Of a DNA stretch of 64,000 bases, positions 24,700-46,529 are shown piece by piece. The notes beneath the pieces were generated by a model. It ran no database searches and was not told where the DNA came from. It saw nothing but the letters and a program-made list of their open reading frames with translations. How positions within the stretch are numbered: the stretch's first letter is position 1; every line of letters begins with the position of its first letter. Location of the stretch: positions 52,255 to 116,254 of the forward strand of contig JANQEO010000039.1 of the NCBI GenBank assembly GCA_028278325.1. Reading direction: 5' to 3'. The position numbers and the translations under genes were made by a program. The DNA is from Candidatus Binatia bacterium. Its GTDB lineage: Bacteria > Desulfobacterota > Binatia > UBA1149 > JAJCZL01.

Positions 24700-26460
24700 A
24701 TGGGTCCGGTGCGCGTCATTCGAAACGGGATGCTGGCTCTGACAGCCGCGGCGCTGTTGGCTTTGCCCGAGCCGGCGGCAGCTCAGTACGACTGTACGGT
24801 CACGTTCTCCCTCGACGACGCCGTGACTCTCGGAGCCTTGTCGGTCGATGTGGATTATGACGAGGCGATAATAGACTTCGACGGCAGCGGCGCATCCGTG
24901 GTCTGTGCCGGCCTAAACCCCTCCGCCTTGGGCACTTTCAACGAGGACGAGGGCACGGGAGTGCTCAGCCAAGGCTATCTGGCGCCGGCCGGTGTAACAG
25001 GGCCCACGGACCTGGCCGCCTGCGATTTCGTTTCTACGTTGCCGCCGGTGCCAGGGGACTTCCCCGCGACGGTAACCAGCGCAACCGATCCTTTCCTGTC
25101 GCCGGTCAATCCTCTGCCTACGGTTTCCGTGACCGATATCTCCTGCACGGGTGGCCCGACCACGACAACGTCTTCGACGACCACGACCACCCTGGGGCCG
25201 GGATCCACCACCACGACCAGCACCACGACGACCACGACTCTGCCGTCGAACTACTGTGACGTCACCATTGTCTTGCTCCTGCCTTCACCACCGATAACCC
25301 TTGCCGCTCTTCAGTTCGACGTTGACTACAGCGGAGCGGGCGGACAGATCGAAGGCACCGGCAGCAATCCGTCATGCGCTTCGTTGATCGGCGGCGTGCT
25401 CGCGACCTTCTCGGACAACGACGCGGGTGAAGTGCTCTCTGGGGCCTACGTCAGCTTGAGCGGTATCGCATCGCCCAACTTCATCGCCCAGTGCGGTTTC
25501 CTCTACGACACCGTTCCGCCGGGCATAAACGATTTCACCGTCACCGTCACCGATGCGACGGCGACGAACCCGGCCGACAATCCGGTTACGACTCTCATGA
25601 GGGTCTCCAGCGTCGACTGCGTCGGCGCTACCACTACGACAACCACGACTTCCACCACGACCTCCACCACGACTACGTCGACCAGCACGACCACGACGAC
25701 CGTGCCCGTTTGCGGAGACGGCATCATGCAGTCGGGTGAAGAGTGCGACGACGGAGTGGCCAACTCCGACACCATCGCGAACGCCTGCAGAACCGACTGC
25801 GCGTTGCCCTGGTGCGGCGACGACGTGGTCGACACCGGCGAGGAGTGCGACGACGGTAGCTCCAACAGCGATGCGGCGCCGACCGCGTGCAGGCTCGACT
25901 GCACCGAGCCCGCTATGTGCGGAGACGCCGACGACAACGGCTCCGTCACCGCGGGCGATGCCCTCAGGGTTTTGAGGGCCGCAGTAGGAATTCCGGAGAT
26001 CTGTGAGTACTCACGCTGCGATTCGAACGGTGACGGGTCGCTTAGCGCCAGCGATGCGCAGAGCATTCTGCAGTCGGCCGTAGGTCAGTCCATCGTGCTC
26101 GACTGCTCCCTCGACGTCATGTTGAGGCTCGACGATGCCGTCACCCTCGGCCAGCTGGATCTGTCAGTGGACTACTCGGCTACCGGCGATACCTTCGTCG
26201 GCGAGGCGACTGCGGCGAGCTGCGCGGTGGTGATAGGTGGCGGAGTCGTGGCGACCTTCGACAACGACACCCAGGCGGAGTCCTTGAGTGTAAGCCTGAG
26301 TTCTGCGGGCACCTTCTCCGGCCCATTCAACCTGGCCGAATGCGATTTCTTCCACCGCGTGGCGACACCGAACCCCGGTGATTTCGTGATACAGGTCGTC
26401 GGTGCCCAGGACGGCGGCGGGTCTCCCGTCGCGCCGCCCAGCGTGTCGGTCAACTACTAA
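24700..26460 (+). CDS. secreted mosaic protein: 3 cohesin-like domains, 2 Thr-rich linkers, 2 ECDDG Cys-rich repeats, one two-segment dockerin-like module
   Basis: Signal peptide (ALLALPEPAAAQ). Three ~120-aa paralogous domains start at about 24787, 25252 and 26101, each with D(D)AVTLGxLxxxVDY and ..CDF.. blocks. The Cys-rich repeats are CGDGIMQSGEECDDG and CGDDVVDTGEECDDG. The dockerin-like module is GDADDNGSVTAGDALRVLRAAVG plus CDSNGDGSLSASDAQSILQSAVG. Confidence 0.8.
   Translation: MGPVRVIRNGMLALTAAALLALPEPAAAQYDCTVTFSLDDAVTLGALSVDVDYDEAIIDFDGSGASVVCAGLNPSALGTFNEDEGTGVLSQGYLAPAGVTGPTDLAACDFVSTLPPVPGDFPATVTSATDPFLSPVNPLPTVSVTDISCTGGPTTTTSSTTTTTLGPGSTTTTSTTTTTTLPSNYCDVTIVLLLPSPPITLAALQFDVDYSGAGGQIEGTGSNPSCASLIGGVLATFSDNDAGEVLSGAYVSLSGIASPNFIAQCGFLYDTVPPGINDFTVTVTDATATNPADNPVTTLMRVSSVDCVGATTTTTTTSTTTSTTTTSTSTTTTTVPVCGDGIMQSGEECDDGVANSDTIANACRTDCALPWCGDDVVDTGEECDDGSSNSDAAPTACRLDCTEPAMCGDADDNGSVTAGDALRVLRAAVGIPEICEYSRCDSNGDGSLSASDAQSILQSAVGQSIVLDCSLDVMLRLDDAVTLGQLDLSVDYSATGDTFVGEATAASCAVVIGGGVVATFDNDTQAESLSVSLSSAGTFSGPFNLAECDFFHRVATPNPGDFVIQVVGAQDGGGSPVAPPSVSVNY
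25159..25239 (+). repeat. Thr/Ser-rich linker coding low-complexity tract (linker 1 of cohesin/dockerin protein)
   Basis: Run of ACN/TCN codons encoding TTTTSSTTTTTLGPGSTTTTSTTTTTT. Confidence 0.9.
25630..25701 (+). repeat. Thr/Ser-rich linker coding low-complexity tract (linker 2)
   Basis: Encodes TTTTTTTSTTTSTTTTSTSTTTTT. Confidence 0.9.
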
Positions 26461-26461
26461 T

Positions 26462-27925
26462 TCACTCAGACAGCCCGAAGGCCTGATCGACCAGGTCGGT
26501 AGCGATCGATAGTGCACTGTCGCCCAGGCAGGTCGGCACTGGCGACATCTCGAAGTGACAGCCCAGCAAGCCCGTAGTGTCCTTGCATGCGTCAATCTGA
26601 GAGTCGGCCTTCGACTGGAACTTGCCGATGTCGGCAGCCACTGCCGTCGGGCAATCGACCGGGCTGACGGCCTGGATGTTGGACACCTCGCAGGTGCCGA
26701 GGCTCTTGTGGATGCCTTTGAGGGCCTTCTGTATGCCTTTGCTGAGCTTCTTCTGGCACTTGGCCGCGTCGACCGTGCCTGCCGTGTTGCCGGGAAGGTC
26801 GGGGGGCGCGGTGCCCAGACTGTCGATCAGCGCCTGGTTCATGGCCTCGTCCTGGCGGCAGATCAGGCAGTCTACGTACTCGCTCATCGTGTTGACGCTT
26901 ATGCTGTCACAAGACCCGCCGCAGGTTTCGGGGATTCCCAGCAGTGAAGGCGTGAGGAACAGGGCTTCGCACTTGCGGTCTTTCTCGCCGCCGATCTTGC
27001 TACGCAGCTTGGCCTCGGCCTTCAGCAGCTTCAGGTCACGCCTGCCCGTATCGCAGGCAACGCCCGTGACCTCGTCGACGTAGCAGCGCGACCACTCCTT
27101 GAAGTGAGTCTTGGAGTAGCGCCTGAAGTTCTTGTCCACGTCGCTCAAGCAGGCCTCGCGGTCCGCCGGCGGCCCCAAGACCTCGACGAGTCCCAGTCCG
27201 CTCACGGGGATGTCGATGTCGGGCTCGTCGGGATCGTCCGAGGACACGCGGAAAGTCCCGGACGCCAGGGTCAGTGCCGGAGGCGCGAACACGACATCTA
27301 CGGTTTCGCTGCCTCCCAGCGGAATGCTGAACGGCGGCGTCGGGCCGTTCGCCAGGCTAAACGTGGGGTCTGATCCCGGCAGGAGCTGGTAGTCGGTGAC
27401 CATGACGGGGTCGCTGCTGCCGTTGTTGCGAATCGTGACCGTCGTGGAGACGACCTCGCCGACGTCGGCCACGAATCCGATGGTTCCCGGCGACACGTCG
27501 ATATCCAAAGGCTCGAGGCAGGTCGGGACCAGAGGTGTGATGTAGGTGTCGTAGCCCAGCGGCGCTCCAACAGCGTCTTGGAAGTTGGAGCAGTCGTAGC
27601 CGGGCAGGGTCATGTAGGTCAGGATCTCGTCGACGTTGGTGAACCCGTCCGAGTCGCTATCGAATGTCTCGATGTCAGTGAGGGACTGGGTAATCGTCTT
27701 GCCGATGTAGAGCTGCTGCTCTACCGCCTGTCCGAAGAGGTTGCGGCCTCCGGTGCCGGTCCACAGGAAATGGCACACGCCGCAGGCGTGGAGGTCATCG
27801 CTTTCCTGGACCCCGTAAAGGGTAACGAAGTTGTCGAAGTAGCTGGGCCGGGCCTGGCTCGCGCTGGGAATTGCGAGAACGGCGAACAGGGCTATCGACG
27901 CCGATACGGTTGCTGCCTTGAGCAT
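26462..27925 (-). CDS. secreted monohaem c-type cytochrome-like protein with Ig-like (choice-of-anchor-D-like) domain and C-terminal Cys-framed helical domain
   Basis: I chose ATG 27925, 5 nt after the upstream stop, giving the signal peptide MLKAATVSASIALFAVLAIPSASQA. One CXXCH (ACGVCH). A Ca-loop-like DSDSDGFTNVDE. A beta-sandwich-like segment (..VSTTVTIRNNGSSDPVMV..DPDEPDIDIPVSGLG). The C-terminal ~232 aa are colinear with the C-terminus of the upstream cytochrome. Confidence 0.75.
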   Translation of the reverse strand: MLKAATVSASIALFAVLAIPSASQARPSYFDNFVTLYGVQESDDLHACGVCHFLWTGTGGRNLFGQAVEQQLYIGKTITQSLTDIETFDSDSDGFTNVDEILTYMTLPGYDCSNFQDAVGAPLGYDTYITPLVPTCLEPLDIDVSPGTIGFVADVGEVVSTTVTIRNNGSSDPVMVTDYQLLPGSDPTFSLANGPTPPFSIPLGGSETVDVVFAPPALTLASGTFRVSSDDPDEPDIDIPVSGLGLVEVLGPPADREACLSDVDKNFRRYSKTHFKEWSRCYVDEVTGVACDTGRRDLKLLKAEAKLRSKIGGEKDRKCEALFLTPSLLGIPETCGGSCDSISVNTMSEYVDCLICRQDEAMNQALIDSLGTAPPDLPGNTAGTVDAAKCQKKLSKGIQKALKGIHKSLGTCEVSNIQAVSPVDCPTAVAADIGKFQSKADSQIDACKDTTGLLGCHFEMSPVPTCLGDSALSIATDLVDQAFGLSE

Positions 27926-27930
27926 CGTTC

Positions 27931-30375
27931 TCACGGGTAGGCTACCTCCGTGAATACGGGCGCGGCCGCCCCGATGGCCGACTCGACGCAGGTCTGCACG
28001 TCCATGGCCGTGCCGGCGCCTCCGCAGCCTGCCAAGCCGGTGAAGTCGGTGCACTTCGATATCTTGTTAGAGGCCTTGGCCATCGCGTCCGCGATGTCTC
28101 CGTCCGGGTCTGTCGAGCAGTCCTCTGCCGGGTTGTTGGCGCCGGTGCGGTTGTCGTCCTCGCAGCTTGCCAGCGCCTTGGCCCAGGCGGCCGACAGTTT
28201 CACGGAAGCCTTGGCGATCAGCTTCTGACACTTTCCGGGATCGCCTGAGACCGTCGGCGGCAAGTCCGGAGGCTCGCTGCCGTAGGCGGCATCCAGAGTC
28301 TGGCCGGCGAGATGGTCGGCCGTGCATGCGGCGCAGTCGGCCAGGGAAGCGTTATCGAACAGTGTGATGTGGCTGCACGGTGCCGGGCATATCGAGGGCG
28401 CGGCGTCGCCATGGCCTATGGACATCGGCGTCAGATTCACTCCGGCGCACTTCTTGTCCTTGGCGCCGCCGACACGCTCGCGAAGCTTCTCAGCAGCTTT
28501 GGCCACACGCTCGTCGCGCCGGGTCTCGTCGCAGCTCAGACCTTTGGCCTCGCTCCCGAAGCACTTGGCCCACTCGCGCGCATATTTCTTTTGATAGCGG
28601 GCCTGGTTCTTGGAGACGCTCTTGTGGCAACGGTTCACGACGTCGGTGTCGGTCTCCAGGAAGCCGTAGGCCATTACGACGGGCTCAGACTTGCCGTGGT
28701 CGTTCCACAGGTCGAACAGGATGTTGCCGGATGCCGTGGTTACGTCCGTGTCACGCAAGAACTCGATGTATTCCTTGGATGCGGTCTGGTAGTAGAGCGT
28801 CGCCTCGGCCTGCACCGCGTCGACTCCGACGGGATAGACCACATCGTCCCAGTACTGACCGTCCAGGAAGGTCACGCCTACCGGGTCGCCGTCGAAAGCG
28901 TCGAAGGCGGCGTTGGTGAATCCGCGCGGCGGAATCCGGTTGTCGAACTCAATCGTGTCGTTGAGAACGAGGTGGAAGCTCGGTCCGGGATTCAGGCCCA
29001 AGGTCATCGCCCAGCCGGGGCTCAGCCCGTGGATGGTTTCCCACACGTAGAGATAGGGATCGTAGTCGGGGTCCATCGGCAGAGCTTCGTATCCCAGCAG
29101 GTCGGCGGTAGAGAACACGTAGCGGCCGGACTCGAAGATGACGTTACGGTCGGCGTCGAAGGCGCGCACATGAAGCCACATGCGCCGTCCTTCGGGGTAA
29201 CCCGTCGGCAGCTTGTGACCGGTCTCGTTCCTCACCGTCACCGTGAGATCGCCGGCGTTGAGAGACATCGACATCGTCGCGGCCTTACGCAGGTTGCGTA
29301 TGGCTACTTCTACCGAGTCGGCCATCACGTCGGCGTCGACCTCGGACCCGAAGGCCGGGTGGTGGGGCAACACCGTCGGTATGAAAGTGTTGGCGCCCTC
29401 GAAGGTGTGAAGCGGAACATCGTCGCGGGTCAGTCCCGTGTTCGCATCCTTACCCGACACGTCGGGCATGTGGCAGTCCTGGCAGGTCGAGACGGTATCT
29501 TTGTTACGCCCGAACTGCGGTGCAATGACGCCGGTGGTGGCGTACTCGCTCGCAGCCCATTCGTCGTAGGTGACCTGCTCGGGGAAGCCGAGTGTCGGAT
29601 CTCCCGGGGTGTCCAGGGGATTAGGCACGTAGTTGCCCATGGCGTCGCGCGTGAACACTGGGTTCCTGAGGTTGTGACAGGTCCCGCACATGTCGGAGCT
29701 TTCGTGGAATGGAGAAATGATCGTCGTGCGGTCGGGTATGTGCGGGTCGCTGCCCAGATCGCCGATGATGTCGAAGGGGCCGCGCATTCGCGCTTCGGGA
29801 TCCACCACCATCATGGCGTTGCCGAAGGCGGGGACCGGATCGGCCAGCGCAGCCAAGATTGCGGCATCCTCGGTAGGGTTCTCGGGATCGGCGAAAGGAT
29901 CGACCATGCGATGGCAGACGGAGCACTGCACCCCCTCACGGTCGTCGGCCGTCATTGCAGTGCCGTCTTCGGGTGTAGAGCGCCCTTCGAGCCAGCCCTT
30001 GGGCATGTGGCAGCGCAGGCAGGTCTCACCCGAATCGACCGCGTCCTGGTTCGCAACCGCCAGTGCCGCTCTCCACAGAGGGTCACGGCCGGCCTGGGCC
30101 ATCATCGATCCCGACCAGTTCAAGAAAGGCTCGACCTCGGGTTGGCCGTATCCGGAATGGCAGGGCGTGCAGTCCGAGGGAGGCCCAAAGTTGTCGATTA
30201 TCGAAAGCGGCTGAGTCCCGGGTGCTTCGAAGTCGTTGCGTGTGGTGGCCACGGGGAGCGACCATGCCGGCACCGCGGTTAAAGCCGCAAAGGCGAGCGC
30301 AAGAACGGCCGGCACGAACCGTGCCGACCGTCTTGTATTGCTTCCCCCCCTTGTAACCACCTCGGCTGACCTCAC
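27931..30375 (-). CDS. secreted pentahaem c-type cytochrome with C-terminal Cys-framed helical domain
   Basis: GTG start with GGAGGAG upstream, followed by a signal peptide. Five CXXCH motifs: CTPCH, CLRCH, CSVCH, CGTCH and CQDCH. A GHKLPTGYPEGRRMW block follows. The C-terminal ~236 aa (27934..28641) are homologous to the C-terminus of the downstream gene product. Confidence 0.85.
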   Translation of the reverse strand: MRSAEVVTRGGSNTRRSARFVPAVLALAFAALTAVPAWSLPVATTRNDFEAPGTQPLSIIDNFGPPSDCTPCHSGYGQPEVEPFLNWSGSMMAQAGRDPLWRAALAVANQDAVDSGETCLRCHMPKGWLEGRSTPEDGTAMTADDREGVQCSVCHRMVDPFADPENPTEDAAILAALADPVPAFGNAMMVVDPEARMRGPFDIIGDLGSDPHIPDRTTIISPFHESSDMCGTCHNLRNPVFTRDAMGNYVPNPLDTPGDPTLGFPEQVTYDEWAASEYATTGVIAPQFGRNKDTVSTCQDCHMPDVSGKDANTGLTRDDVPLHTFEGANTFIPTVLPHHPAFGSEVDADVMADSVEVAIRNLRKAATMSMSLNAGDLTVTVRNETGHKLPTGYPEGRRMWLHVRAFDADRNVIFESGRYVFSTADLLGYEALPMDPDYDPYLYVWETIHGLSPGWAMTLGLNPGPSFHLVLNDTIEFDNRIPPRGFTNAAFDAFDGDPVGVTFLDGQYWDDVVYPVGVDAVQAEATLYYQTASKEYIEFLRDTDVTTASGNILFDLWNDHGKSEPVVMAYGFLETDTDVVNRCHKSVSKNQARYQKKYAREWAKCFGSEAKGLSCDETRRDERVAKAAEKLRERVGGAKDKKCAGVNLTPMSIGHGDAAPSICPAPCSHITLFDNASLADCAACTADHLAGQTLDAAYGSEPPDLPPTVSGDPGKCQKLIAKASVKLSAAWAKALASCEDDNRTGANNPAEDCSTDPDGDIADAMAKASNKISKCTDFTGLAGCGGAGTAMDVQTCVESAIGAAAPVFTEVAYP

Positions 30376-30395
30376 GCCCGGGTGTTCTCCTCCGC

Positions 30396-32285
30396 TTACG
30401 GCGTGCAGTCGTTCGGCGAGAAGAAGAACTGCCCGGCTCCTCCGCCGGCAGCGTTGGCCGTGAAGCAGTTGTTGTGGTTGCCGCCGACCTCGTCGCCGAG
30501 TCCGTGGAACATCGTCGCCCCGAACGGCGCCGGAGACTGCGGGATTCCGCCGTTCTGGTTGAAGTTGTTGCTGCGCACCGTATTGCCCTCGGCGGTTTGG
30601 TCAGGGCTCGTCGGATCGAAGGGCAACGGCATGCCGCCAACCAGCACGTTGATGACCACCTGATCCAACAGTGCGAACCCGAACGTTTCGTTGAAGGTCG
30701 ACAGGTTGTGGTGGATGTCGGAGTTGTCGACCGACAGGATGATCATGCCGGTTCCGCCCGGGATCAACCCTACGGTTCCGGAACCGATGTTCACCGCGTT
30801 GTTGCTGATGTTCACGTTGCTGAACACCTCGTGATCGCTGCCGAGTTGTAGCGGCGGTCCGGGCAGCTTGAACACCAGCACGCCGCCGGAGTTACCAGTC
30901 GCGTAGTTGTTGTGTGTCCGAGAGTACTGAGAGTTCTCGACCTCGATGCCGGCAACGTTGTTCTCGACCACGTTGAAGCGAACCTCGATGTTGGTCGATT
31001 GGCCGACATAGATGCCCGCGTCGATGATCTCCTTGACGTAACTGGTCTCGATGAGAACGTCGTCGCTGGTGACGGGGAAGACGGCATATACCGTCTTGAA
31101 GTTATCGCCGTCACCGACGATATCCCTGAAGGAGACACCCTGGGCGCCGCTCACGAAGATTCCGTTCTCCTCCCAGCTGAACACTTCCAGGCTCTGGAAG
31201 TGCAGGCCATCGACGTTGGCTGCGAAGATGCCGTTGATGTCTGTTCCGCCGCCGTCAGGGATGACGCGGGGCCGGTCGTCTACATGGGCGCCGCAACCGA
31301 CCAGGGAAAGGTTGTCGGTCGTGATCGTAATCTCCTCAGCATAGTTGCCGGAGGCGATGAGGAGCTTGTCCCCGTCCAGGGCCGCGCCCACGGCAGCTCC
31401 GATGGCGCCGGCACCGGGGGTGACCAGCGTGGCCGCCGGCTCGGCATACTGACTCTCGAGTATCTCGTACATATAGGACCAGATCCCGTCGAGTCCGGCC
31501 AGGCTCAGGCAATCCTTGACGTCCTGCAACGTCTCCGCGTCAGGACACGCGAACATGTCGGCGATCGTTCCTATGGGACCCTCGGCCCCCGCCACGTCGC
31601 ACTTCTTGTCGATGCCTTCTCCAGCCTTATCGATGAGCTTGTCGATCTTGGCGTTTGTCTTGGTATCTGTCGGCAGCGTGTAAGTTCCGCCGGAGTGGGT
31701 GCCGACGCACAGAGGCGCGAGATCGCCGGCGACGCCGTCCTTCATGGCCTTGTCGATGCACTTGCTCATCAGCTTGAGGCCCTTGGAGACGACCTTGTTG
31801 CCCTGCTTGTCCAGTTCCTTGGCGCAGTCGGTGCGGGCTTTCGTGTCACGCGGTGTTCCGCCGATACCGTCGATGATCCCGATGAGAACATCGGCGCTGG
31901 CGTCGACCTGGCTCAGAGCGCAGCTCGATATCGCTGTCTCATCCGTCAAGGTCGAGTAAAAACCCGACAGTGCCGCCTGGGCGGCATCGTCCGAGCAGTC
32001 CGAGTTGATCTTGTCGACGGCCTTCATGCGGGCCTTGTCGATCTTCTGTGTATCTTTCTGCTCGGGGCACAGTCCGGGAACGGCCTGCTGGAGGCATTTG
32101 CCCATCGCCTTCATCTTTTTCTTGACATAGAGGTTGGTCATCTTGGTGATGGTCTTCTGACACTTGAGTGCGTCAGGGCCGGCCGAGTTGATGACCGGAG
32201 GCGAGTCGGGCCCCGTGATCGGCTGGGCCAGCGCGGTGCCGGCTGTCAATACGATTGCGGCGCTAATAGCGGCAAGTAATCTCAT
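30396..32285 (-). CDS. secreted protein: N-terminal Cys-framed Lys-rich helical domain + right-handed parallel beta-helix domain
   Basis: GAGGGGGA RBS and signal peptide MRLLAAISAAIVLTAGTALA. Residues ~38-262 contain KCQKTITKMTNLYVKKKMKAMGKC and DCAKELDKQGNKVVSKGLKLMSKC. The C-terminal half has repeated beta-helix rungs (NNVAGIEVENS, NNYATGNSGGVLV, ISNNAVN..). Confidence 0.8.
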   Translation of the reverse strand: MRLLAAISAAIVLTAGTALAQPITGPDSPPVINSAGPDALKCQKTITKMTNLYVKKKMKAMGKCLQQAVPGLCPEQKDTQKIDKARMKAVDKINSDCSDDAAQAALSGFYSTLTDETAISSCALSQVDASADVLIGIIDGIGGTPRDTKARTDCAKELDKQGNKVVSKGLKLMSKCIDKAMKDGVAGDLAPLCVGTHSGGTYTLPTDTKTNAKIDKLIDKAGEGIDKKCDVAGAEGPIGTIADMFACPDAETLQDVKDCLSLAGLDGIWSYMYEILESQYAEPAATLVTPGAGAIGAAVGAALDGDKLLIASGNYAEEITITTDNLSLVGCGAHVDDRPRVIPDGGGTDINGIFAANVDGLHFQSLEVFSWEENGIFVSGAQGVSFRDIVGDGDNFKTVYAVFPVTSDDVLIETSYVKEIIDAGIYVGQSTNIEVRFNVVENNVAGIEVENSQYSRTHNNYATGNSGGVLVFKLPGPPLQLGSDHEVFSNVNISNNAVNIGSGTVGLIPGGTGMIILSVDNSDIHHNLSTFNETFGFALLDQVVINVLVGGMPLPFDPTSPDQTAEGNTVRSNNFNQNGGIPQSPAPFGATMFHGLGDEVGGNHNNCFTANAAGGGAGQFFFSPNDCTP

Positions 32286-32540
32286 CGAATCCCCCTCTCT
32301 GTGGGTTGGATAGTATTTGGCGGCCTTGCGGGAGCCAGAACGTGAGATTCACATCGGGGTTGTCCCTATGTCAACTGACTTTATCCCCCATTAGGGTAGG
32401 CTGTATTGGATTCGCAAAGACCTGTGCGCAAGTCGGGTGAGCCTTCGCGGGATGCAGCCCGTCATGCAGGCCAGTGGGCGGCAGTTGCCTGCATCTGCTG
32501 ACCGTCAAAGTCACATCCCAGGTCGCGCGAAATCTGGTCG

Positions 32541-33581: not shown

Positions 33582-34388
33582 CTACGGCAATTGGAACGGT
33601 GCTTCAGGTGTCGGGCAGTTGGTAGCGTCGTCGCAGAGGTTGTCTTCAATCGTAACGTCTGCGCTGGTGCAGTCGTCTATCGGCGTCACCACGGAACTAT
33701 CGACGATGTTGGCCAAAAGGCGCACGTGATCGTCGGGAGCGCAGGTGGTCCCAAGGCAGTCGATTCCAGATGCTTCGTCTCGGATATAGTTGTTCTCGAC
33801 CTTCGGCCCGCTACCGCTATCAGTCCCGCACACTACGATTCCTCTGCCTGTGAAGCCGTCGGTCGTTCCGTCGATGAAGTTGTCACGGACGAAGGACGTA
33901 CTCGTGGTCAGCGCGGTACTGGTGAACTGTATAGCATCGCCTCCGGCGTTGATGATGACATTCCCGTGCACCTTCTTTGTATGAGAACTCCCTCCTATTG
34001 CCACGTCGGTCGTCCCGTCGATCAACATGTTCTTGACCTCCGCAGCATCGTCAGCTCCATGTGTGAACGGGCCGTCAATCGTTCCGCCTTGAAGAACGCT
34101 GCCCGAGTCAAAGGCTCTTACGGCTCTGCCGCAGGCGGAGTCGGAACACTCGATCGTGGCCCCGTTAAGGTCTAGGTTCCGTCCGTCATGCATCTCGACG
34201 CAGGTTGAACTCGAGTCGGTCGTCAGGACGTCATTTGGGCTCAGGGTGCGATTCCCGGTCGTCGCGTCGACGACAAAGGGTGAAGAAGAACAATCGGTTA
34301 TAGCTGCGGCGAGGGGGTTGCTACTGCCGAGGGTTGCGAGAACACTGGCAACGACAACAACTGCGATCCGTTTGCTTTCGATTCTCAT
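33582..34388 (-). CDS. small secreted parallel beta-helix-like protein
   Basis: GGGAGG RBS, a signal peptide, and short Gly/Asp/Thr-rich rungs (IDGTTDVAIGG, VIINAGGDAIQF, NFIDGTTDGFTGRGIVV, ENNYIRD). No catalytic assignment is possible. Confidence 0.6.
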   Translation of the reverse strand: MRIESKRIAVVVVASVLATLGSSNPLAAAITDCSSSPFVVDATTGNRTLSPNDVLTTDSSSTCVEMHDGRNLDLNGATIECSDSACGRAVRAFDSGSVLQGGTIDGPFTHGADDAAEVKNMLIDGTTDVAIGGSSHTKKVHGNVIINAGGDAIQFTSTALTTSTSFVRDNFIDGTTDGFTGRGIVVCGTDSGSGPKVENNYIRDEASGIDCLGTTCAPDDHVRLLANIVDSSVVTPIDDCTSADVTIEDNLCDDATNCPTPEAPFQLP

Positions 34389-35155: not shown

Positions 35156-37195
35156 CTAGTACGGATACGGGCAGTTGACCGTGCCGTTGGCCAGGTACGG
35201 CGAACCGTCGGCACAAAGGCCGTCCGGACAGTCGCCGTCGTCGACGCAAGCCAGGCCGTTATTGGTGCCGCCTTGGCAGATGTCGACTTCAGGATACGGA
35301 TCGTCGTTGCATGATCCGCCCGGACAGTCGGCGTCGCCGTTGGTCGAGCAGTCCAACCCTGCATTCGTCCCGCCGTTACATGTCGCGATCGGGTTGCAGT
35401 TGCCGCTCGAGCAGATCACCGACGTCCACAGCGGATCGTCGTCGATCTGCTGCTGAATCCAGTCAGCGATTGTGATGCTCACGCCGGTCAGGTCCGTATA
35501 GACCTTGTCGCTGCCGAACATGCCGTGCTCGGACCCTGCGCCGACGTAAGTGGCGTAGTTGTCCCCGGTATTGGCAATCGTGTCCAGGTTCTGGGCCGCG
35601 CGGCCGGCATCCCAGCCACACTGCGACTCCCACCATTGCGGCCACACGCTGTTCAGGAAGCCCGCGGTGAACAACAGGTCACTGGGGTTGGGGTTCGGGT
35701 TGCTCATGACATGGAAGAAGGCCGCCTGGCCTCCGCCGCTGCCGTCGTAGCGACTCGCGAAGTTCGCGAAGTCATGCTCCGGGTAGGTGTTGGCCAGCGT
35801 CTCGTAACCTTTCGGTGTGATCTGAGTCTCTTCGAGTTTGATCTGCTGAACCAGCGGGTCTTCGGCGGCGGTGGCGTCGAAGTTCCAGTTGTCGAAGCTA
35901 TTGTCGAACCAATCCTGGGTGATCACGCCGTCGCCGGCATCGCCGAGCACGTCGAATTTTGATGCCGGGAATACGTTCTTGATCAGGAAGAAGCTGTTCA
36001 GCAACGCGCCGTAAGCTCCGGCGCTGGTGCCCGTCACATAGACCTGCTCGGGATTCACGAAGAGATCGCGTGCCAGTTTCTCCATGGCCTTGGCGTTGAT
36101 ACGGCCAAAGTGATTGACCCGGCCGTTGCCGGGTAGGCCGAGCGGGTTATCTAAGAGTCGTGTCGTTTGGCCCGTATGTACGTCGCCCGTGCAGTAGGGA
36201 ATGAAGACCACGTGCCAGTCGGCGAACGGGTTGGCCGGATTCGTGTAATCGGCGAATCCCGTCGTGTTGAAGGTCGGGTCGTCACCGGCGCCCGCGCTCT
36301 GCTTGAAGGTCTGGGCCAGATTGCAGGAGTCGCGGTTCCAGCAGGCGCCGCCGCCCTGATAATACATGAGCAGCTTGTTGACGCTGCCCTTGCGGTAAAA
36401 GCCCAAGTAAGTGCTTTCGGTGTTGAAGTCCCGCGAGCACTTGGTGTGCAAGACCTCACCTTCGTAGATCAGTTCCTCGGTCGGCGGATTCGGATTCGGG
36501 ATGTAAGTCGTGAAGCTGGCATCCGGCGTGTCCTGGACGCCGTGGGTGTCGTCCATGCTGCCGTCAGTGGCTGCCGCTACTGCGTCACGGATGTTCTGGT
36601 TGGTGACGGCCGGGCAGCCGGGCTTGCCGACCGTGGCCTTGTCGAAGCTCTTGTCGAACTTCTCGTCGGCTTTGTCTTGAATCTTGGTGCGCTTGGTGCC
36701 GGTGAGATCGGTGTCGTACTTCTTCAAGAAGAGAGCCTCGCCCTTGAGCATGCCGCCGCACAGTTTGGCCGCTGCGCCGAGAAGAGAAGACCTACATTTC
36801 TTCTCGTCGTCGTCGCCGGCCGGTACGCCGTCGAGGATCAACGTCTCGATGGCCGCAGTTTCAGTATCGAGCATCCCCTGGGTGGTGGCCAGAGGCGCCG
36901 GGCCGATCGTGCAGTCGACGTTCTTCTTTGCAGCCTTGTCGTCGGACTTATCGTAGGTCTTGTCGAGTTTGTCGCCGGCCTTGGAAAGCGAGTTGGCCAG
37001 TTTGGTGGCGTCGCCGGTTTTCTGGAACTTGCCCATGGCCTTGAGGACCGACTGGCAATACTTGGCCGCGCCCTTGAGCTTGCCAGATACGCAATCGCGC
37101 TGGGGATAACCTGCCTCGGCAGTGCCGACGCTTAGGGCCAAGAACGATGCGCCTACGAAAGTAGCGATCGCGAACAGTGCTGAACGACGAAACAT
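35156..37195 (-). CDS. secreted pectin-acetylesterase/Notum-like alpha/beta hydrolase with N-terminal Cys-framed helical domain and C-terminal mini Cys-knot repeats (paralogue 1)
   Basis: I chose ATG 37195, which has GGAGGAGG upstream and gives a signal peptide. The helical domain spans 36566..37111 (DCVSGKLKGAAKYCQSVLKAMGKFQK). PAE-family blocks are MYYQGGGACWNRDSCN, IPYCTGDVHTG, VTGTSAGAYG (GxSxG), VLGDAGDG and GAGSEHGMF. The C-terminus has CNGGTNAGLDCSTNGDADCPGGSC and CQGGTNNGLACVDDGDCPDGLC, and ends in VNCPYPY. Confidence 0.8.
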   Translation of the reverse strand: MFRRSALFAIATFVGASFLALSVGTAEAGYPQRDCVSGKLKGAAKYCQSVLKAMGKFQKTGDATKLANSLSKAGDKLDKTYDKSDDKAAKKNVDCTIGPAPLATTQGMLDTETAAIETLILDGVPAGDDDEKKCRSSLLGAAAKLCGGMLKGEALFLKKYDTDLTGTKRTKIQDKADEKFDKSFDKATVGKPGCPAVTNQNIRDAVAAATDGSMDDTHGVQDTPDASFTTYIPNPNPPTEELIYEGEVLHTKCSRDFNTESTYLGFYRKGSVNKLLMYYQGGGACWNRDSCNLAQTFKQSAGAGDDPTFNTTGFADYTNPANPFADWHVVFIPYCTGDVHTGQTTRLLDNPLGLPGNGRVNHFGRINAKAMEKLARDLFVNPEQVYVTGTSAGAYGALLNSFFLIKNVFPASKFDVLGDAGDGVITQDWFDNSFDNWNFDATAAEDPLVQQIKLEETQITPKGYETLANTYPEHDFANFASRYDGSGGGQAAFFHVMSNPNPNPSDLLFTAGFLNSVWPQWWESQCGWDAGRAAQNLDTIANTGDNYATYVGAGSEHGMFGSDKVYTDLTGVSITIADWIQQQIDDDPLWTSVICSSGNCNPIATCNGGTNAGLDCSTNGDADCPGGSCNDDPYPEVDICQGGTNNGLACVDDGDCPDGLCADGSPYLANGTVNCPYPY

Positions 37196-37264
37196 AGGAA
37201 CCTCCTCCAATCGGTCCGTGTGGTCGTGATGGACCGGCACCAGGGCCGGATAGTACCAACGCGT

Positions 37265-37497: not shown

Positions 37498-39537
37498 CTA
37501 GTAGGGATACGGGCAGTTCACGGTGCCGCCGGGAAGGAACGGCGAGCCGTCGGCGCAAAGTCCGTCCGGACAACCGCTGTCATCCACGCAGGCCAACCCG
37601 TTGTTGGTGCCGCCCTGACAGGTGTCGACGATGGCGACAGGGTCTTCGGCGCAGGCCCCTCCCGGACAGTCGGCGTCACCGTTGGCCGAGCAATCTCCGC
37701 CGGCGTTGGTGCCGCCTTGACAGGTCGCGATCGGATCGCAACTGCCATCGGCGCAGATGCGTGACGTCCACGCGACATCGTCGTTCATCTGCTGGTTGAT
37801 CCAGTCGACGATGGTGATGCCTGTGCCGGTGGTGTCCGTGTAGACCCTGTCCAGACCGAACATCGTGTGGGCAGAGCCGGCACCGACGTAGACCTGGTAG
37901 TTGCCGTTCGTCGTGTTGGCCAGCGTCGCAATGTGCTGCGCCGCGCGTCCCGAGTCGTACCCGCAGGTATCCTCCCAGTACTGTGGCCATACGTTGGCCA
38001 GGAAGCCGGCAGTGAACAGCAGATCACTCGGATTCGGATTGGGGTTGAGCATCACGTGGTAGAACTGCGTGAAGACCTGATCGTAGCGGCCGATGAAAGT
38101 CGCGAAGTCGTGCTCCGGGTAGGTGTTGGCGAGATTCTCGAGCCCCTCTTGGAAGACCAGCACGCTTCCCTGGTCGACGTTTGCCAGAATCGGGCTCTCC
38201 GCGGCTGTGGCCGCGAAGTTCCAATTGGGCAAGCCGTTGTCGATCCAGTCTTGAGTGGGAACGCCGTCGCCGGCGTCGCTGAGCACGTCGAACTTGGATG
38301 CAGGGTAAGCGTCTTCTATCAGGAAGACGCTGTTGACTACGGCGCCCAGGCCGCCCGCGCTACTGCCGGTCACGTAGACGTGCTCGGGGTTCACGAACAG
38401 GTCGCGTGCCAACTTCTCCATGGCCTTGGCGTTGACGCGGCCGCGATGGTTGACGCGGTCATGAGCGGGAGGGCCGATGGGATTGTCATAGAGCTTGGTG
38501 GTATTGCCGACGTGGATGTCGCCGGTGCAGTAGGGCACGTACACGATGTGCCAGTCCTTCCAGGGGTTGAGTGGGTTGTCCCAATCGGCGAGCCCGACAG
38601 AGCCGGGGGTCGGGTCGTCGCCGACACCGGCCGTCTGCTTGAAGAGCTGGGCCAGGTTGCAGGAGTCACGGTTCCAGCAGGCGCCGCCGCCTTGGTAGTA
38701 CATGAGCAGTTTGTTGACGCTGCCCTTTCGGTAGAAGCCCAGGTAGGTGCTCTCCAGGCTCGAGTCGCGTGAGCACTTTGGGAACAGCTCTTCACTTTCA
38801 TACATCAACGGAACGAAAGGGTTCGGGGTCGGCACATAGCTTGTGAAGGAGGCGTCCGTGACGTCGACCACTCCGTGCGTGTCGTCCATGGTGCCGTCGG
38901 TTGCCAGCGCTACGGCATCACGGATGTCTTGATTCGTGACGGTCGGGCAGCCGGGCTTCCCGATCGTGGCCTTGTCAAAGACCTTGTCGAACTTCGTATC
39001 AGCCTTGTCTTGGATCTTGTCGCGCTTGGTGCCGAGAAGGTCGGTATCGTACTTCTTCAGGTACAGAGACTCACCCTTGAGGATGCCGCCGCACAGTTTG
39101 GCCGCTGCGCCCAGAAGCGAAGACCGGCACTTTTTCTCATCGTCGTTTCCGGCGGGGACGCCGTCGAGAATCAATGTCTCGATTGCAGTGGTTTCGGTGT
39201 CGAGCATGCCCTGGGTAGTTGCCAGAGGCGCCGGTCCCATCGTGCAATCGACGTCGCCCTTCAGGGCCTTGTCGTCGGCCTTATCGTAGGCCTTGTCGAG
39301 TTTGTCGCCGGCCTTGGAGAGCGAGTTGGCCAGCTTGGTTCCATCGCCGGTCTTCTGAAATTTGCCCATCGCTTTGAGGACCGACTGGCAGTACTTGGCC
39401 GCGCCTTTGAGCTTGCCCGATACGCAGTCGCGCTGGGGATAACCCGCCTCGGCCGTGCCGACGCTTAGGGTCAGGAGCGACGCGCCTACGAAAGTAGAAA
39501 TCGCGACTAGTGCTGAACGACGATGCAAGAGATGCAT
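37498..39537 (-). CDS. secreted pectin-acetylesterase/Notum-like alpha/beta hydrolase with the same N- and C-terminal modules (paralogue 2)
   Basis: I chose ATG 39537, which has GAGGAGG 9 nt upstream. Same architecture as 35156..37195. Some N-terminal stretches are identical (GYPQRDCVSGKLKGAAKYCQSVLKAMGKFQKTGD). The nucleophile motif is GSSAGGLG, and the protein ends in VNCPYPY. Confidence 0.8.
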   Translation of the reverse strand: MHLLHRRSALVAISTFVGASLLTLSVGTAEAGYPQRDCVSGKLKGAAKYCQSVLKAMGKFQKTGDGTKLANSLSKAGDKLDKAYDKADDKALKGDVDCTMGPAPLATTQGMLDTETTAIETLILDGVPAGNDDEKKCRSSLLGAAAKLCGGILKGESLYLKKYDTDLLGTKRDKIQDKADTKFDKVFDKATIGKPGCPTVTNQDIRDAVALATDGTMDDTHGVVDVTDASFTSYVPTPNPFVPLMYESEELFPKCSRDSSLESTYLGFYRKGSVNKLLMYYQGGGACWNRDSCNLAQLFKQTAGVGDDPTPGSVGLADWDNPLNPWKDWHIVYVPYCTGDIHVGNTTKLYDNPIGPPAHDRVNHRGRVNAKAMEKLARDLFVNPEHVYVTGSSAGGLGAVVNSVFLIEDAYPASKFDVLSDAGDGVPTQDWIDNGLPNWNFAATAAESPILANVDQGSVLVFQEGLENLANTYPEHDFATFIGRYDQVFTQFYHVMLNPNPNPSDLLFTAGFLANVWPQYWEDTCGYDSGRAAQHIATLANTTNGNYQVYVGAGSAHTMFGLDRVYTDTTGTGITIVDWINQQMNDDVAWTSRICADGSCDPIATCQGGTNAGGDCSANGDADCPGGACAEDPVAIVDTCQGGTNNGLACVDDSGCPDGLCADGSPFLPGGTVNCPYPY

Positions 39538-39605
39538 GTTGGGGGGCCTCCTCTTCATTGTGGGTAGCTAGGTTGTTCCGGCGAGCCGGGCCGGCCGGCG
39601 GCGCC

Positions 39606-42551: not shown

Positions 42552-42740
42552 TCGGCGGGCTTTCGCCCACCTGTTGTCCTAACCGCTGCTTTGTCGAGCG
42601 GCTGTTGTCCTAACCGGCGGGCTTGCGCCCGCCTGCTGTCCTAATCGACGCTCTGTCGAGCGGCTGTTGTCTTGACCGGCGGGCTTGCGCCCGCCTGTTG
42701 TCCTAAGCGCTGGCTGGCTAACCGGCGGTTCGGCGGTTTC
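42550..42740. repeat. tandem array of five 31-bp units (two alternating hairpin types, i.e. ~2.5 x 62 bp) plus a degenerate sixth, filling a convergent intergenic gap
   Basis: Units start at 42550, 42581, 42612, 42643 and 42674. Type A is aaYCGGCGGGCTTGCGCCCGCCTGYTGTCCT, a 7-bp GC stem with a 4-nt loop. Type B is aaYCGMYGCTYTGTCGAGCGGCTGTTGTCYT. All units share the tail CTGTTGTCCTAA. Confidence 0.85.
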
Positions 42741-45700
42741 TACTTACACCGCAGAGAGTTGCCGCTGCCTGAGAGGGTGCAGGGCGGTGTGGTGCCGATC
42801 CAGGTTCCGTCGCCGACGGTGAACGTGACGTCTGCGCTGGCCGCCGCACTCGCTGCCGACGCATCGCTGTCCTTGAAAGTGACGTTGAGCTTGTAGCCGC
42901 TGTCCCTGACCTTGATCGTAACTCGCCACAGGCCGTCGGCTTGAGGCGGCGCTGACGGCTTCCACTTGAAGCGATTGCCTTTGTTGTTGGTCGACCAGTC
43001 CGGATCGCCGGGATCGAGTGTCATCGATGCGATCGTGGATGCGCCGTCCTCTATCGACAGGCTCACAGTCTGTGACGGCGGATCGAACACCAGCCCCGAT
43101 TCGTCGAGCTCCTCGCTCTTGAGCTTCACCCGCTGTTCCCCGGCCGCTTTGGTCAGCCGGGTTACCTTCATGGTCTTGGTGATGAAGGGACGCGGCGGCG
43201 GAAGGGTCGTCGTTGTCGTCGAGGTGCTGGTGGTAGTTGTCGAGGTAGTAGTCGTGGTGGTCGTGGCTCCGGGCTCGCAAGCGTTGCCGATCCCGTTCAT
43301 GTCGGTGTCGTTCTGGGTCGGGTTGGGTACATCGGCGCAGTTGTCGGCACGGTTCATGTGCCCGTCGCCGTCCCGGTCCAGGGCCATGCGCGTGCCCGAT
43401 CCGAAGGGAGCGCAGGTATAGGTAAGCTCTTGACCCGGCACCGAAGCCTGCGTTCGGAACGACGATTCCTCGACCGGGGAGCTGCCGTCGTCGGGCTGGA
43501 CGTCCCCGCCCGGCAGTAACAGTGCCGAGATCTGATCGGTTCCCACCGTCCCCTTGATCACCACGTCGCATTGCGTGGATCCCGGACCCAGCAGCTTGGA
43601 GGGATAGGGCGTGGCCGCTGCGGTGATCATGTCGTTGATGCGTGTATCGACGGTCGCCGCACTCGTCGAGGTCTTGGTTATCTGTTGGCCGACGATCGGC
43701 GGCAGGTCGGTATCGAATACGAGCATGAAGGCTTCGATGTCGACGCCCGAGCCTATGTTCGTGTCGAATACATTCAACTCGAAGAACCGCCTGACCGTGT
43801 CGAAGCTGCCGTCATGGGTGAAGCCGAAACCTCGTACCTGAGGTCCCTGGTTGGTGTAGTCCCCGCTCGTCGGCAACCTCGGCGTACGTGCCATGCCGAA
43901 CATGCCGATCTTCTGGTACTGGTTGCGAAGGTGGGGAGTCTTCAACTCGCGCACCGTTCCTTGCTCGGTGGATGTTCCGTCGGCACCGAAAAAGCCTTCG
44001 GACGGTGAGATGATGTGGCAGACGTTGCAGCTGCCGGTCGTGTCCGATGTCGGCCCGAAGAATATGCCGGAACCGATACTTTCATCCGGCCTCAAGGAGT
44101 TGTCGAGTTGCCGTAGCGGATTGGGGGGATACCTGATCTCCAGTGCGAAGTCGGTGAACTTCTGCATGTCGGCTGCAGAAAACTCGCCTTCGTCGCGGCC
44201 GACCAACCCGGGGAAAGCGACGTTGAAGGCGTTGAAGGCCTGCACCGCATCGCCCTGGCGGTCACCGCGCCAGTGCTGGGGACCCATGTCGGCCAGCCCG
44301 CGCAGGCTCTGCGTAATCATCGGGCCCTTGATGGGATGGAAGTCTGTGGGGGCGCCGGCCCTGAGCGGGTTGGTGTTCTCTGCCACGAGGCCGTCGGGAT
44401 CCCCGAGATCCCAGGCCAGGTCGTCCATGTCTCCGAACAAATGGCAGCTTGCACACGACGCCTCGCCGTTGCTGCCGGTCAAGATCGCGTCGTACAGGAA
44501 GGGCCGGCCGTTGATCACGCGCAGAGGCTCGGGATTGTGCAGCGGTACGCGTTGTATCTCGGTGCCGACGCTTCCCAGCGTCAGGTCGACGACCACTACG
44601 GAGTTGTTGAAGCGTGTCAGAGTGAACAACAAGTCACCGTCGACTACTACTCCCGCCGGCCCTCCGCCCGACAGTGTTATGTGATCGGCGGCGTCGGGTA
44701 CGAAGGTGTCATTCTCCAAAGCGTTGGTATCGAAGACGCCGATTTTCCCTGAGCCGAAAGCCGCCAGGTAGAGGGTCTGTCCGTCGGCGCTGATGTCCAT
44801 TCCCACTGGAGTGGAAAGGCTCTTGTCCTGGGCGCCGGCCGGTTGGGGGATGGCGCTATAGTCGATGTGCTTGTTCAGATGTCGGGGCGTGACGGCGCCC
44901 GCCGGCTCGATTACGGTGATGCGGCTCTCGGCGAGGCGCCCTCGCACCGAAGCCGGCTCACCCATGGGCTTGATCGGTCCGGAGATGGTGCCGAATCCTT
45001 CCAGGCGCACTTCGTTGCGTGCTTCCGTGTTCGAGACATAGAGCTTTCCGGAAACCGGGTTGACGGCCATGTTGAAAAGGATGGTACCGACATGGGCGAA
45101 GGAGTCCGTCTCTACCGGCGGATTCGCGTTGGCCGAGATCGCGAACACGTCGAGGTCGGGTAACTCGAAACGCACCGCAGCGCTCCAGTCACGTCCGAGC
45201 TCGTCTTGCCAAGTATCCGAGGTGCCGCCGTCGCGGTTGAGCTTCACGATCAGACCGGTTTCGTTTTTTGCAACGCCTTCCTGGTTCTTGTGAGGCGGAG
45301 GGTAGCCGCCCGGCATGATCACGCCGTCCACACTGCATGGGCCTTCCACGGTTTCCGCCGCGGCGTTGGCCGGGCTGGTGTCGCACACCGAAGCCTCGTT
45401 GAGGGTCGTGGTCTGGTTGCCGGAGCGGAACACGGCGGTGTAGACGGTGGATAGATCGGGGCTGACCGCCAACGCGCGCGGCTTGTCGCCGAACAAGGTC
45501 ACGATGCTGAGCGGAGTGCCGCCCATGGCGGCGCCGAGGCTGTTCGCGTTGAAGACCCAGACGTCGGCACGTCCTACGCCTTCGACGTCGTACTCGCCGC
45601 GCGGATAGGGCGAATTCTGGCCACGGTGGGCCGTTGTGATGAAGGCTCGGTCGCCGCCGCTACCGGCAAAGACGATGTCTCGCGGCTCGTCGCCGACCAG

Positions 45701-46042: not shown

Positions 46043-46061
46043 GGCGGCGGACCGAGTCGGA

Positions 46062-46529
46062 CTATAGGGCTTTGACGGCCTCCAGCACCTCGTCGGCGTG
46101 CCCATCGACTTTGACCTTTCGCCATTCACGGCGCAAGACGCCTTTTGCGTCTATGAGGAAGGTGCTTCGCTCGACGCCCCTTACCTGCTTGCCGTACATG
46201 TTCTTGAGCTTGATCACATCGTAGGCTTTGCAGGCTTTCTCGTCCTTGTCGGAGAGCAGATGGAAGGGGAACCCCTGCTTGTCCTTGAACTTCTCGTGCG
46301 ATGCTGTCGAGTCTCGCGAGACGCCGAGGATCACGGCGCCGGCGCGCTTGAACTTGGCGTGAGCGTCGCGGAAGTCGCCTCCCTCACGCGTGCATCCGGG
46401 GGTGCTGTCCTTTGGGTAGAAGTACAGAACTACCTTCTTGCCCTTCAACGTGGACAGCTCGATGGTCTGATCGCCCGTGGCAGGGAGTTTGAAGGCCGGG
46501 GCTTTCTTACCGACGGCTACAGTAGGCAT
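46062..46529 (-). CDS. bcp: thioredoxin-dependent peroxiredoxin Bcp
   Basis: VVLYFYPKDSTPGCTREG contains the peroxidatic Cys motif. Length and overall pattern fit Bcp/PrxQ. Confidence 0.9.
   Translation of the reverse strand: MPTVAVGKKAPAFKLPATGDQTIELSTLKGKKVVLYFYPKDSTPGCTREGGDFRDAHAKFKRAGAVILGVSRDSTASHEKFKDKQGFPFHLLSDKDEKACKAYDVIKLKNMYGKQVRGVERSTFLIDAKGVLRREWRKVKVDGHADEVLEAVKAL

Follow-up and report, generated by a model that had tools for sequence, protein, structure and literature searches.

What does a Cys-framed helical domain do that is carried by a pentahaem cytochrome, a monohaem protein and a parallel beta-helix protein encoded side by side, and what do these three proteins do together? 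The locus that raises this question lies in a stretch of 64,000 nucleotides from Candidatus Binatia bacterium (GenBank assembly GCA_028278325.1, contig JANQEO010000039.1, positions 52,255 to 116,254 of the forward strand), which is called the window in the following and whose positions are used throughout. Binatia, also known as UBP10 or Desulfobacterota_B, are a globally distributed, uncultured lineage. The genes are designated g1 (beta-helix protein), g2 (pentahaem cytochrome) and g3 (monohaem protein), and their coordinates are collected in Table 1. An initial annotation, made without database searches, had regarded the three products as a possible periplasmic or extracellular redox or enzymatic assembly whose subunits are joined or targeted by the shared domain. 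The analysis presented here gives slightly better than even chances to the trio being a surface-located redox module that is tagged with a lineage-specific anchoring or docking domain.

A three-gene unit kept together in Binatia

The unit consists of three minus-strand open reading frames (ORFs) with intergenic gaps of 20 nt (g1/g2) and 5 nt (g2/g3). A Sec-type signal peptide was read by eye at the start of each of the three proteins, a lipobox in none of them, and a motif scan counted no CXXCH in g1, five in g2 and one in g3. The ORFs, their coordinates and gaps and the numbers of CXXCH motifs are hence as the initial annotation had given them. Since a divergent plus-strand gene starts at 32541 and a convergent gene stops at 26460, with a distance of 1 nt to the stop of g3 (26462), there is no room for a fourth gene and the unit comprises exactly g1 to g3. 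In the upstream intergenic segment (32286..32540) neither an Rfam element nor a consensus sigma-70 site was found, and a scan for riboswitches, promoters and terminators around the operon yielded nothing informative.

Conservation of the trio was examined in 22 Binatia loci from species-representative genomes, as the initial annotation had proposed. In 20 of these loci g3 directly follows g2, with one of the other two ending at a contig edge, and g1 is adjacent in 18, being located directly upstream of g2 in 17 and downstream of g3 in one. As this gene order is kept despite differing flanks (a tilS/ftsH/glmM block in several loci, dtd and a DUF4215 protein in the present one), the trio behaves as a cassette. 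The g2 and g3 copies of the shared domain are about 27-40% identical to each other within every locus, and orthologous copies are 38-66% identical between loci. Around 100 orthologues of g1 with 600-680 aa and the same architecture were found; full-length homologues of g2, i.e., those including the C-terminal domain, are assigned, when named, to Candidatus Binatia, UBP10, 'delta proteobacterium', Myxococcota and Thermodesulfobacteriota metagenome-assembled genomes (MAGs).

The shared Cys-framed helical domain

Residues 583-784 of g2 and 259-456 of g3 are colinear and show 38% identity over 204 aa (E 9e-40), as the initial annotation had seen for the C-terminal ~235 aa of both proteins. Its further claim that g1 carries the same domain is borne out as well: the N-terminal domain of g1 is 24% identical to the g2 copy in a pairwise BLASTP comparison (E 4e-6), and a global HHalign comparison of the family of this N-terminal domain (87 sequences) with the family of the C-terminal domains (122 sequences) joins the two with a probability of 98.6% and an E of 5e-15 over 216 columns. 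The shared domain has a length of about 235 aa, and its Cys columns are register-perfect across the copies. It is a tandem duplication of the unit C-x21-C-x8..12-C-x21..27-C, the two halves being matched by HHalign with a probability of 92% (E 6.6e-7). Fourteen cysteines are present in each of the g2 and g3 copies, the g1 copy follows the pattern C-x21-C-x8-C-x23-C ... C-x21-C-x16-C-x35-C, and the g1-type family contains 9.4% Lys. An AlphaFold2 model of the g2 copy, built from a 122-row alignment, is all-alpha with seven helices (predicted local distance difference test (pLDDT) 97.5, predicted template modelling score (pTM) 0.92).

Searches of Pfam and NCBIfam returned no match at E <= 0.1 over the shared-domain regions, and PDB sequence searches with g1, g2 and g3 found no chain that matches the domain. 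A Foldseek comparison of the g2 model with PDB gave nothing significant (best E 0.7); PhoU-like two-repeat bundles reached only TM values <= 0.42, and no thioredoxin- or DsbD-like fold was matched. Against BFVD, no fold match was obtained either (best E 0.9). The domain that had been called unassigned is thus still without an assignment, and it can be said for the modelled fold that it has no solved structural relative, a comparison that covers PDB and BFVD and by which a new fold is not claimed. A characterised-domain match was not found and the trio is co-conserved; none of the three observations that the initial annotation had named as refuting its idea was made. Known anchoring, sorting or docking domains, namely the C-terminal domain (CTD) of the type IX secretion system (T9SS), dockerins, PEP-CTERM and SLH, were likewise rejected as identities of the shared domain by the lack of any profile match or PDB/BFVD fold match.

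Among 60 diverse carriers, a family-wide conservation of >=90% is limited to about ten Cys columns and a single Pro. This conservation pattern points to a disulfide-stapled structural scaffold rather than to a catalytic or cofactor site, and the sequences are best read as those of a disulfide-stapled two-repeat helical bundle which would stand outside the redox chemistry.

Two neighbouring genes in the window (35156..37240 and 37498..39558, minus strand) encode tandem paralogues of secreted pectin-acetylesterase (PAE)-like proteins (PF03283). Each of them has a different Lys-rich, Cys-containing helical N-terminal domain with a C-x11-C pattern, as well as a Cys-rich tail at the C-terminus in which 'C.GGTN.G..C......DCP.G.C' motifs recur. 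These N-terminal domains were considered as further copies of the shared domain and rejected, as they have no hidden Markov model (HMM) match and an HHalign probability of <= 3%. A PAE-like protein in another locus (L001, 5061..6998) shows a half-domain match to the shared domain.

A module of the Binatia secretome

A word-indexed search with the C-terminal domain of g3 had returned five fragments of g3 orthologues, which suggested an extreme rarity of the domain. This was overturned by an exhaustive profile search over 1.84 billion cluster representatives, in which 299 clusters were found at E <= 1e-3 and 87 at E <= 1e-10. Architectures were counted in the top 150 of the 299 clusters. The domain is C-terminal in 21 of these, mostly orthologues of g2 and g3, and N-terminal in 59, where it directly follows a signal-peptide-like hydrophobic stretch in 53 of the 55 complete ones. 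The regions downstream of the N-terminal copies can be sorted into no fewer than 35 groups that have no relation to each other. Few of these partners are recognised by Pfam; they include amidohydrolase, multicopper oxidase, lamin-tail domain (LTD), cohesin, legume lectin, YHYH, DUF4215 and DUF1565/beta-helix regions. CXXCH motifs were seen among the carriers only in g2 and g3 orthologues and in fragments of them. The family HMM was positive in 22/22 Binatia loci and in 0/58 loci of other phyla, the latter having been fetched via the cytochrome. As judged from sequence, this distribution shows the domain as a lineage-restricted and promiscuous module that would serve the Binatia secretome in general and is not private to the operon.

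Lineage-typical tails at the same position in other phyla

The 58 non-Binatia loci allow a comparison of what follows the pentahaem core elsewhere. In 53 of them, the core is followed by a lineage-typical tail with a length of 54 aa or more. The orthologue from a Flavobacteriaceae MAG carries a T9SS type A sorting domain (40.6 vs 23 bits) and Phycisphaerales orthologues carry GC-type dockerins (37.4 and 36.7 vs 29 bits). FlgD-Ig/T9SS-like and type I dockerin/EF-like tails were found in addition, as was an 'RFYRV' tail without family assignment in Verrucomicrobiota and Pontiella, which also ends several ORFs with six CXXCH motifs (see below). Planctomycetota have a C-terminal domain of about 135 aa ending in '...SNGLHVDYC[ND]' (loci L034, L039, L051, L054, L057, L059, L064, L066, and L078) for which no match was found in Pfam or NCBIfam and which may be another lineage-specific anchor module.

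In Binatia, the Cys-framed domain is located on the cytochrome at exactly the position that is taken by the T9SS and dockerin tails elsewhere, a position which amounts to a 'choice-of-anchor' slot. Because these tails hold the equivalent slot after the pentahaem core, an anchoring role is suggested for the Binatia domain: by this analogy, it most likely anchors, docks or sorts Binatia proteins to a common envelope or extracellular structure. We read the pentahaem protein itself as a probable surface or extracellular cytochrome across phyla. Concerning the initial idea of subunits that are joined or targeted by the shared domain, the promiscuity of the domain and its position equivalent to that of the T9SS and dockerin tails favour the second part, targeting by a general tag, whereas a joining specific to the trio is disfavoured by the at least 35 unrelated partners.

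The pentahaem cytochrome g2

The five CXXCH motifs of g2 are located at residues 69, 119, 151, 230, and 298 (CTPCH, CLRCH, CSVCH, CGTCH, and CQDCH), and the beta-sandwich region of the protein contains the invariant motif N-x-x-G-H-K-L-P-x-G-Y. Its homologues number more than 5000 and are spread over Binatia, Planctomycetota and Verrucomicrobiota; those that bear a name are mostly assigned to Candidatus Binatia. An AlphaFold2 model of residues 1-580 (pLDDT 89.8) has helices up to about residue 340 and strands from 366 to 574. The sole significant PDB fold match of the core in Foldseek is 5ZE8 (E 9.5e-17, probability 1.00, TMt 0.66), the pentahaem low-potential cytochrome c552 of Thermochromatium tepidum. 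The g2 profile is colinear with 5ZE8 over three segments, i.e., haems 1-3, haem 5 and the motif N-x-x-x-H-x-[ML]-P-T-G of the immunoglobulin (Ig) domain, where GHKLPTGYPeGRRmWL of the g2 family aligns to HAMPTGAP-FRNLYL of 5ZE8. The g2 core is thereby shown to belong to the 'PHC' family, into which 5ZE8, Geobacter ExtKL and cytochromes of cable bacteria have been grouped, with small and large versions (PMC11976967). The initial annotation had seen no match of gene order and domain combination to the Mtr/Omc, Nrf, Hao, Otr or Nos layouts; that the components are without known counterparts is not supported, as g2 belongs to the PHC family and g1 to the cytochrome-linked beta-helix proteins of TIGR03805 (see below).

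All ten Cys and five His of the CXXCH motifs are invariant in 53 homologues. Invariant His residues outside the motifs are present at positions 212, 224, 323, 387, and 468, and the alignment shows no conserved Cys outside CXXCH in residues 1-575. From this conservation, we infer that g2 probably holds five bis-His haems, which would speak for electron transfer rather than MccSep-type catalysis and hence for a role as an electron carrier. ExtKL, now named MccSep, was described as a polysulfide reductase with a His/Cys-ligated haem 2 and Sec325 (bioRxiv 10.1101/2025.11.18.688581). An assignment of g2 to MccSep/ExtKL was rejected, as NF040886 reached 31.9 bits against a cutoff of 250 bits and covered profile positions 244-346 only, and as there is no extra conserved Cys. 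The same applies to an assignment to the MtrC/OmcA type: PF22113 scored 24.2 vs 30 bits, the Foldseek match to 6QYC had an E of 0.09, the haems number five, and the operon contains no porin.

The public gene call for g2 comprises 723 aa (89% coverage), starts past the first CXXCH and does not include the signal peptide. The homologues align from residues ~8-44 onward, which supports the 814-aa form, and the public call is likely a start-codon mis-call. It would lead automated haem counts to give four haems.

The monohaem protein g3 and its fusion to the pentahaem core

The Ca-loop that the initial annotation had noted in g3 proved to be a canonical EF-hand loop of 12 residues (D89-S-D-S-D-G-F-T-N-V-D-E100). 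Its Ig-like segment remains near threshold: residues 141-234, directly followed by the shared domain, match the choice-of-anchor D profile NF012200 with 41.5 bits, below the cutoff of 45 bits, and weak matches to ASH and HYDIN/VesB Ig domains were also obtained. By naming convention, 'choice-of-anchor' denotes domains that are found with alternative anchors in different lineages. Translation of g3 may begin at an alternative GTG at 27937, which has a better spacing to a ribosome-binding site (GGAGG); with this start, the gene overlaps the stop codon of g2.

Seven loci of other phyla encode g3-type monohaem, EF-loop and Ig modules N-terminal to the pentahaem core, within one and the same ORF that has six CXXCH motifs (L023 (9182..11875), L024, L025, L029, L031, L038, and L040). 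These loci belong to Verrucomicrobiota, Pontiella, Sedimentisphaerales, Krumholzibacteriia and unclassified MAGs. Since the same modules form one six-haem polypeptide in other phyla, g2 and g3 can be expected to be coupled physically and functionally and to work together, in the sense of a Rosetta-stone relation. A conserved partner gene of the pentahaem gene, in particular a porin, was not found in the 58 non-Binatia loci, and for this reason they do not resemble the ptdABCDEFG cluster (bioRxiv 10.1101/2023.11.21.568154).

The beta-helix protein g1

For g1, the initial reading as a Lys-rich helical N-terminal domain followed by a beta-helix was substantiated by the Lys content given above and by a match of residues 297-584 to TIGR03805 (155.5 bits, cutoff 141.5) that spans profile positions 3-289 of 314. 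A partner criterion of TIGR03805, an adjacent secreted c-type cytochrome, finds its counterpart in g2 and g3, which represent a variant in not being TIGR03806 members. Residues Y400, D422, Y426, R436, E448, E450, and N451 do not vary among the homologues from Binatia to Hyphomonas, and this conserved acidic and aromatic patch suggests a putative binding or active site. A search of PDB with the g1-family profile yielded only generic beta-helix cap matches. Classification of g1 as NosD was rejected (PF05048, 21.8 vs 23.6 bits; TIGR04247, 21.9 vs 300), and no NosF or NosY genes are present in the unit.

Coupling of TIGR03805 proteins to cytochromes was observed in two further arrangements. In Hyphomonas (L081), a TIGR03805 member of about 415 aa adjoins a dihaem c-type cytochrome of the TIGR03806 SO2930 family (396.9 bits), and a protein of 790 aa (P0242) consists of a MauG/MbnH-like dihaem peroxidase domain (residues 76-354) fused to a TIGR03805 beta-helix (428-732). 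This shows that, with the present operon included, three unrelated types of cytochromes are recurrently coupled to the TIGR03805 beta-helix. The P0242 fusion hints at a possible role of the beta-helix as substrate or partner in haem-dependent oxidative chemistry. A literature search on Binatia multihaem cytochromes, TIGR03805/TIGR03806 and SO2930/SO2931 found no functional study; SO2931 is only named there as an outer-membrane cytochrome homologue.

Proposed explanation and alternatives

Taken together, the observations fit the following picture. The electron-carrying part of the system would be split over two proteins, the PHC pentahaem core of g2 and the monohaem/Ig protein g3, and electrons might pass between the haem of g3 and the five haems of g2. 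As TIGR03805 members are repeatedly paired with or fused to c-type cytochromes, g1 would most likely receive or donate electrons or be acted on by the haem proteins; the electrons might also go to or come from a substrate bound by g1. The helical domains may serve to co-localise the three proteins, either at the envelope or on the cell surface.

Several points weigh against this explanation. The other carriers have the domain mostly at the N-terminus and the recognised sorting tails are C-terminal, so that the positional analogy holds for g2 and g3 only. A single common target might predict conserved surface residues, and only Cys and Pro are conserved family-wide. Within the domain, a conserved CxxC (C681/C684 of g2) lies opposite a CxxxC (663/667), both being presumed to form structural disulfides. 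The haem ligation proposed for g2 is deduced from residue conservation, and in 4 of the 22 loci g1 is absent beside g2 and g3, which makes its coupling frequent and not obligatory.

A bolder form of the anchoring explanation, which we regard as speculative and rather improbable, is that the helical bundle represents a new class of docking module which self-associates or binds a scaffold and thereby builds a Binatia-specific extracellular multi-protein layer. The trio would then be a surface redox enzyme acting on an insoluble or polymeric substrate and held together solely by these modules, following a logic like that of the cellulosome, but with an all-helical, disulfide-stapled module.

It is also conceivable, if unlikely, that the domain serves the assembly of the trio specifically, its three copies forming a hetero-oligomer that replaces the covalent fusion of other phyla. 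Such a function would agree with the occurrence of the domain on all three members of the operon, with the g2 and g3 copies being old, separately conserved paralogues, and with the architecture of an internally duplicated helical bundle, which is common for protein-protein interaction; moreover, monohaem module and pentahaem core, being one polypeptide elsewhere, must be held together in Binatia. However, the same domain is found on at least 35 unrelated, haem-free partner regions and is thus not specific to one complex, and the g2 and g3 copies are kept in the 4/22 loci from which g1 is missing. A general self-associating docking module would satisfy both the assembly and the anchoring explanations.

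We have somewhat less expectation of a secretion or sorting signal which is read by a dedicated Binatia machinery and may be cleaved, as in the case of the T9SS CTD. The domain does occupy the slot of the T9SS type A domain in Flavobacteriaceae and of the GC-dockerin in Phycisphaerales orthologues, is lineage-restricted and occurs on many otherwise unrelated secreted proteins. With about 235 aa and seven probable disulfides it is, however, far bigger and more complex than the sorting tails known so far, and it is found at either terminus, mostly at the N-terminal one behind a normal Sec signal peptide.

Very little speaks for a redox or ligand-binding domain whose cysteines, including the CxxC, would be redox-active or metal-binding, for example in thiol-disulfide exchange with a sulfur substrate. 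It would be suggested by MccSep, the nearest characterised PHC relative, reducing polysulfide via Cys and Sec, and by the 14 Cys with a conserved CxxC facing a CxxxC. These cysteines are even in number and frame the helices in C-x21-C repeats, as is typical of structural staples, while a family-wide conservation is seen for none of His, Met, Asp and Glu; the majority of the carriers resemble hydrolases, lectins or adhesins and stand outside any redox context, and the fold comparison gave no thioredoxin- or DsbD-like match. Chance neighbourhood in a region crowded with large secreted Cys-rich proteins, combined with a merely compositional (Cys/Lys/Ala-rich) similarity, is already refuted by the gene order kept in most of the 22 species-level genomes with different flanks, by the module fusion in other phyla and by E values of 9e-40 and 5e-15 with Cys columns in perfect register.

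Features of the locus and neighbouring genes

Table 1. Position of the three genes, their domains and the upstream intergenic segment in the window.
Feature	Coordinates	Strand	Description
g1	30396..32285	minus	629-aa secreted protein: signal peptide, Cys-framed helical N-terminal domain, TIGR03805 parallel beta-helix
g1 copy of shared domain	31476..32180	minus	residues ~36-270; Lys-rich, two repeats
g1 parallel beta-helix	30534..31397	minus	residues 297-584; TIGR03805
g2	27931..30375	minus	814-aa secreted pentahaem cytochrome: PHC-family core and C-terminal shared domain
g2 pentahaem core	28651..30243	minus	residues ~45-575; 5-CXXCH haem domain, then beta-sandwich domains
g2 copy of shared domain	27934..28650	minus	residues 576-814; 14 Cys, seven helices (model), internal tandem duplication
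g3	26462..27925	minus	487-aa secreted protein: monohaem module, EF-hand loop, Ig-like domain, C-terminal shared domain
g3 monohaem module	27521..27856	minus	CGVCH at residue 48 and EF-hand-type loop D89-E100
g3 Ig-like domain	27224..27505	minus	residues 141-234; choice-of-anchor D/ASH-like
g3 copy of shared domain	26465..27175	minus	residues 251-487; 38% identity to the g2 copy, E 9e-40
Upstream intergenic segment, g1 to divergent gene	32286..32540	minus	presumed promoter region of the three-gene unit, by gene layout

Large Cys-rich secretome genes dominate about 30 kb of the window. The gene converging on g3 (24700..26460, plus strand) encodes a secreted protein of 586 aa with three modules of about 150 aa separated by poly-Thr/Ser linkers, DUF4215/myxo-type Cys-rich repeats and a dockerin/EF-hand segment. 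On the upstream side of the operon, at a distance of about 1.3 kb and past two plus-strand genes, a minus-strand gene (33582..34388) encodes a secreted protein of 268 aa that weakly matches a DUF1565-type beta-helix (E 0.002); the gene is not kept beside the trio elsewhere. Three further ORFs of 971-1136 aa (42740..46129, 46578..49493, and 49696..53106) probably encode secreted proteins as well, the first with TSP3 repeats and weak lactonase/CCP_MauG matches and the second with three DUF4215 repeats; no Pfam match was found for the third.

Significance and comparison with known systems

What is new here is an undescribed domain family; the PHC cytochromes and the TIGR03805 beta-helix proteins are families that are already known and poorly understood. 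The domain represents a well-defined and confidently foldable new family with which a sizeable and diverse share of the Binatia secretome is tagged, and it may provide a handle for predicting surface-displayed proteins as well as a candidate for a new Pfam entry. For the widespread 'large pentahaem' cytochromes, the T9SS and dockerin tails are comparative evidence that they are surface proteins, which would have a specific monohaem module as their partner. With the present operon, TIGR03805 is found coupled to a cytochrome in a third, independent case, and this strengthens the idea of a redox-dependent function of the beta-helix. The immediate value of these results lies in annotation and in hypothesis-building rather than in mechanism.

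Compared to MtrC/OmcA systems, the three-gene unit differs in having neither a porin nor a periplasmic decahaem partner, and it differs from NosD loci in its lack of NosFY partner genes. It is the PHC family that g2 resembles: its N-terminal haem domain contains the five CXXCH motifs, and an Ig-like beta-sandwich with H-x-x-P-T-G comes next. Its core of about 530 aa exceeds the 385-423 aa of PHC proteins, and in contrast to MccSep it contains neither a haem-ligating Cys nor Sec/Cys in the corresponding role. It is similar to the large PHC proteins (Gsu2801 and lPHCtX of cable bacteria) in its large core, and to lPHCtX in its extra terminal domain as well; the domain appended in g2 is the helical module, whereas that of lPHCtX is a truncated haemoglobin. 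Like the TIGR03805/TIGR03806 pairs of Hyphomonas (L081) and Shewanella (SO2930/SO2931), g1 adjoins c-type cytochrome genes, but its partners are a PHC and a monohaem protein instead of a TIGR03806 dihaem cytochrome, and in comparison to the proteobacterial TIGR03805 proteins (~415 aa) it has an extra N-terminal domain of ~235 aa.

The closest functional comparison for the shared domain is with the T9SS CTD, the GC-type dockerin (NF041540) and the type I dockerin. It differs from them in being all-alpha, about 235 aa long and equipped with 10-14 Cys, as opposed to a beta-sandwich of about 70 aa or Ca-binding loops, in having no sequence or fold relationship to them and in its mostly N-terminal location in other carriers. 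What the Binatia domain has in common with these modules is that it is promiscuous, lineage-restricted and terminal, and that it is found at the same position on the same cytochrome.

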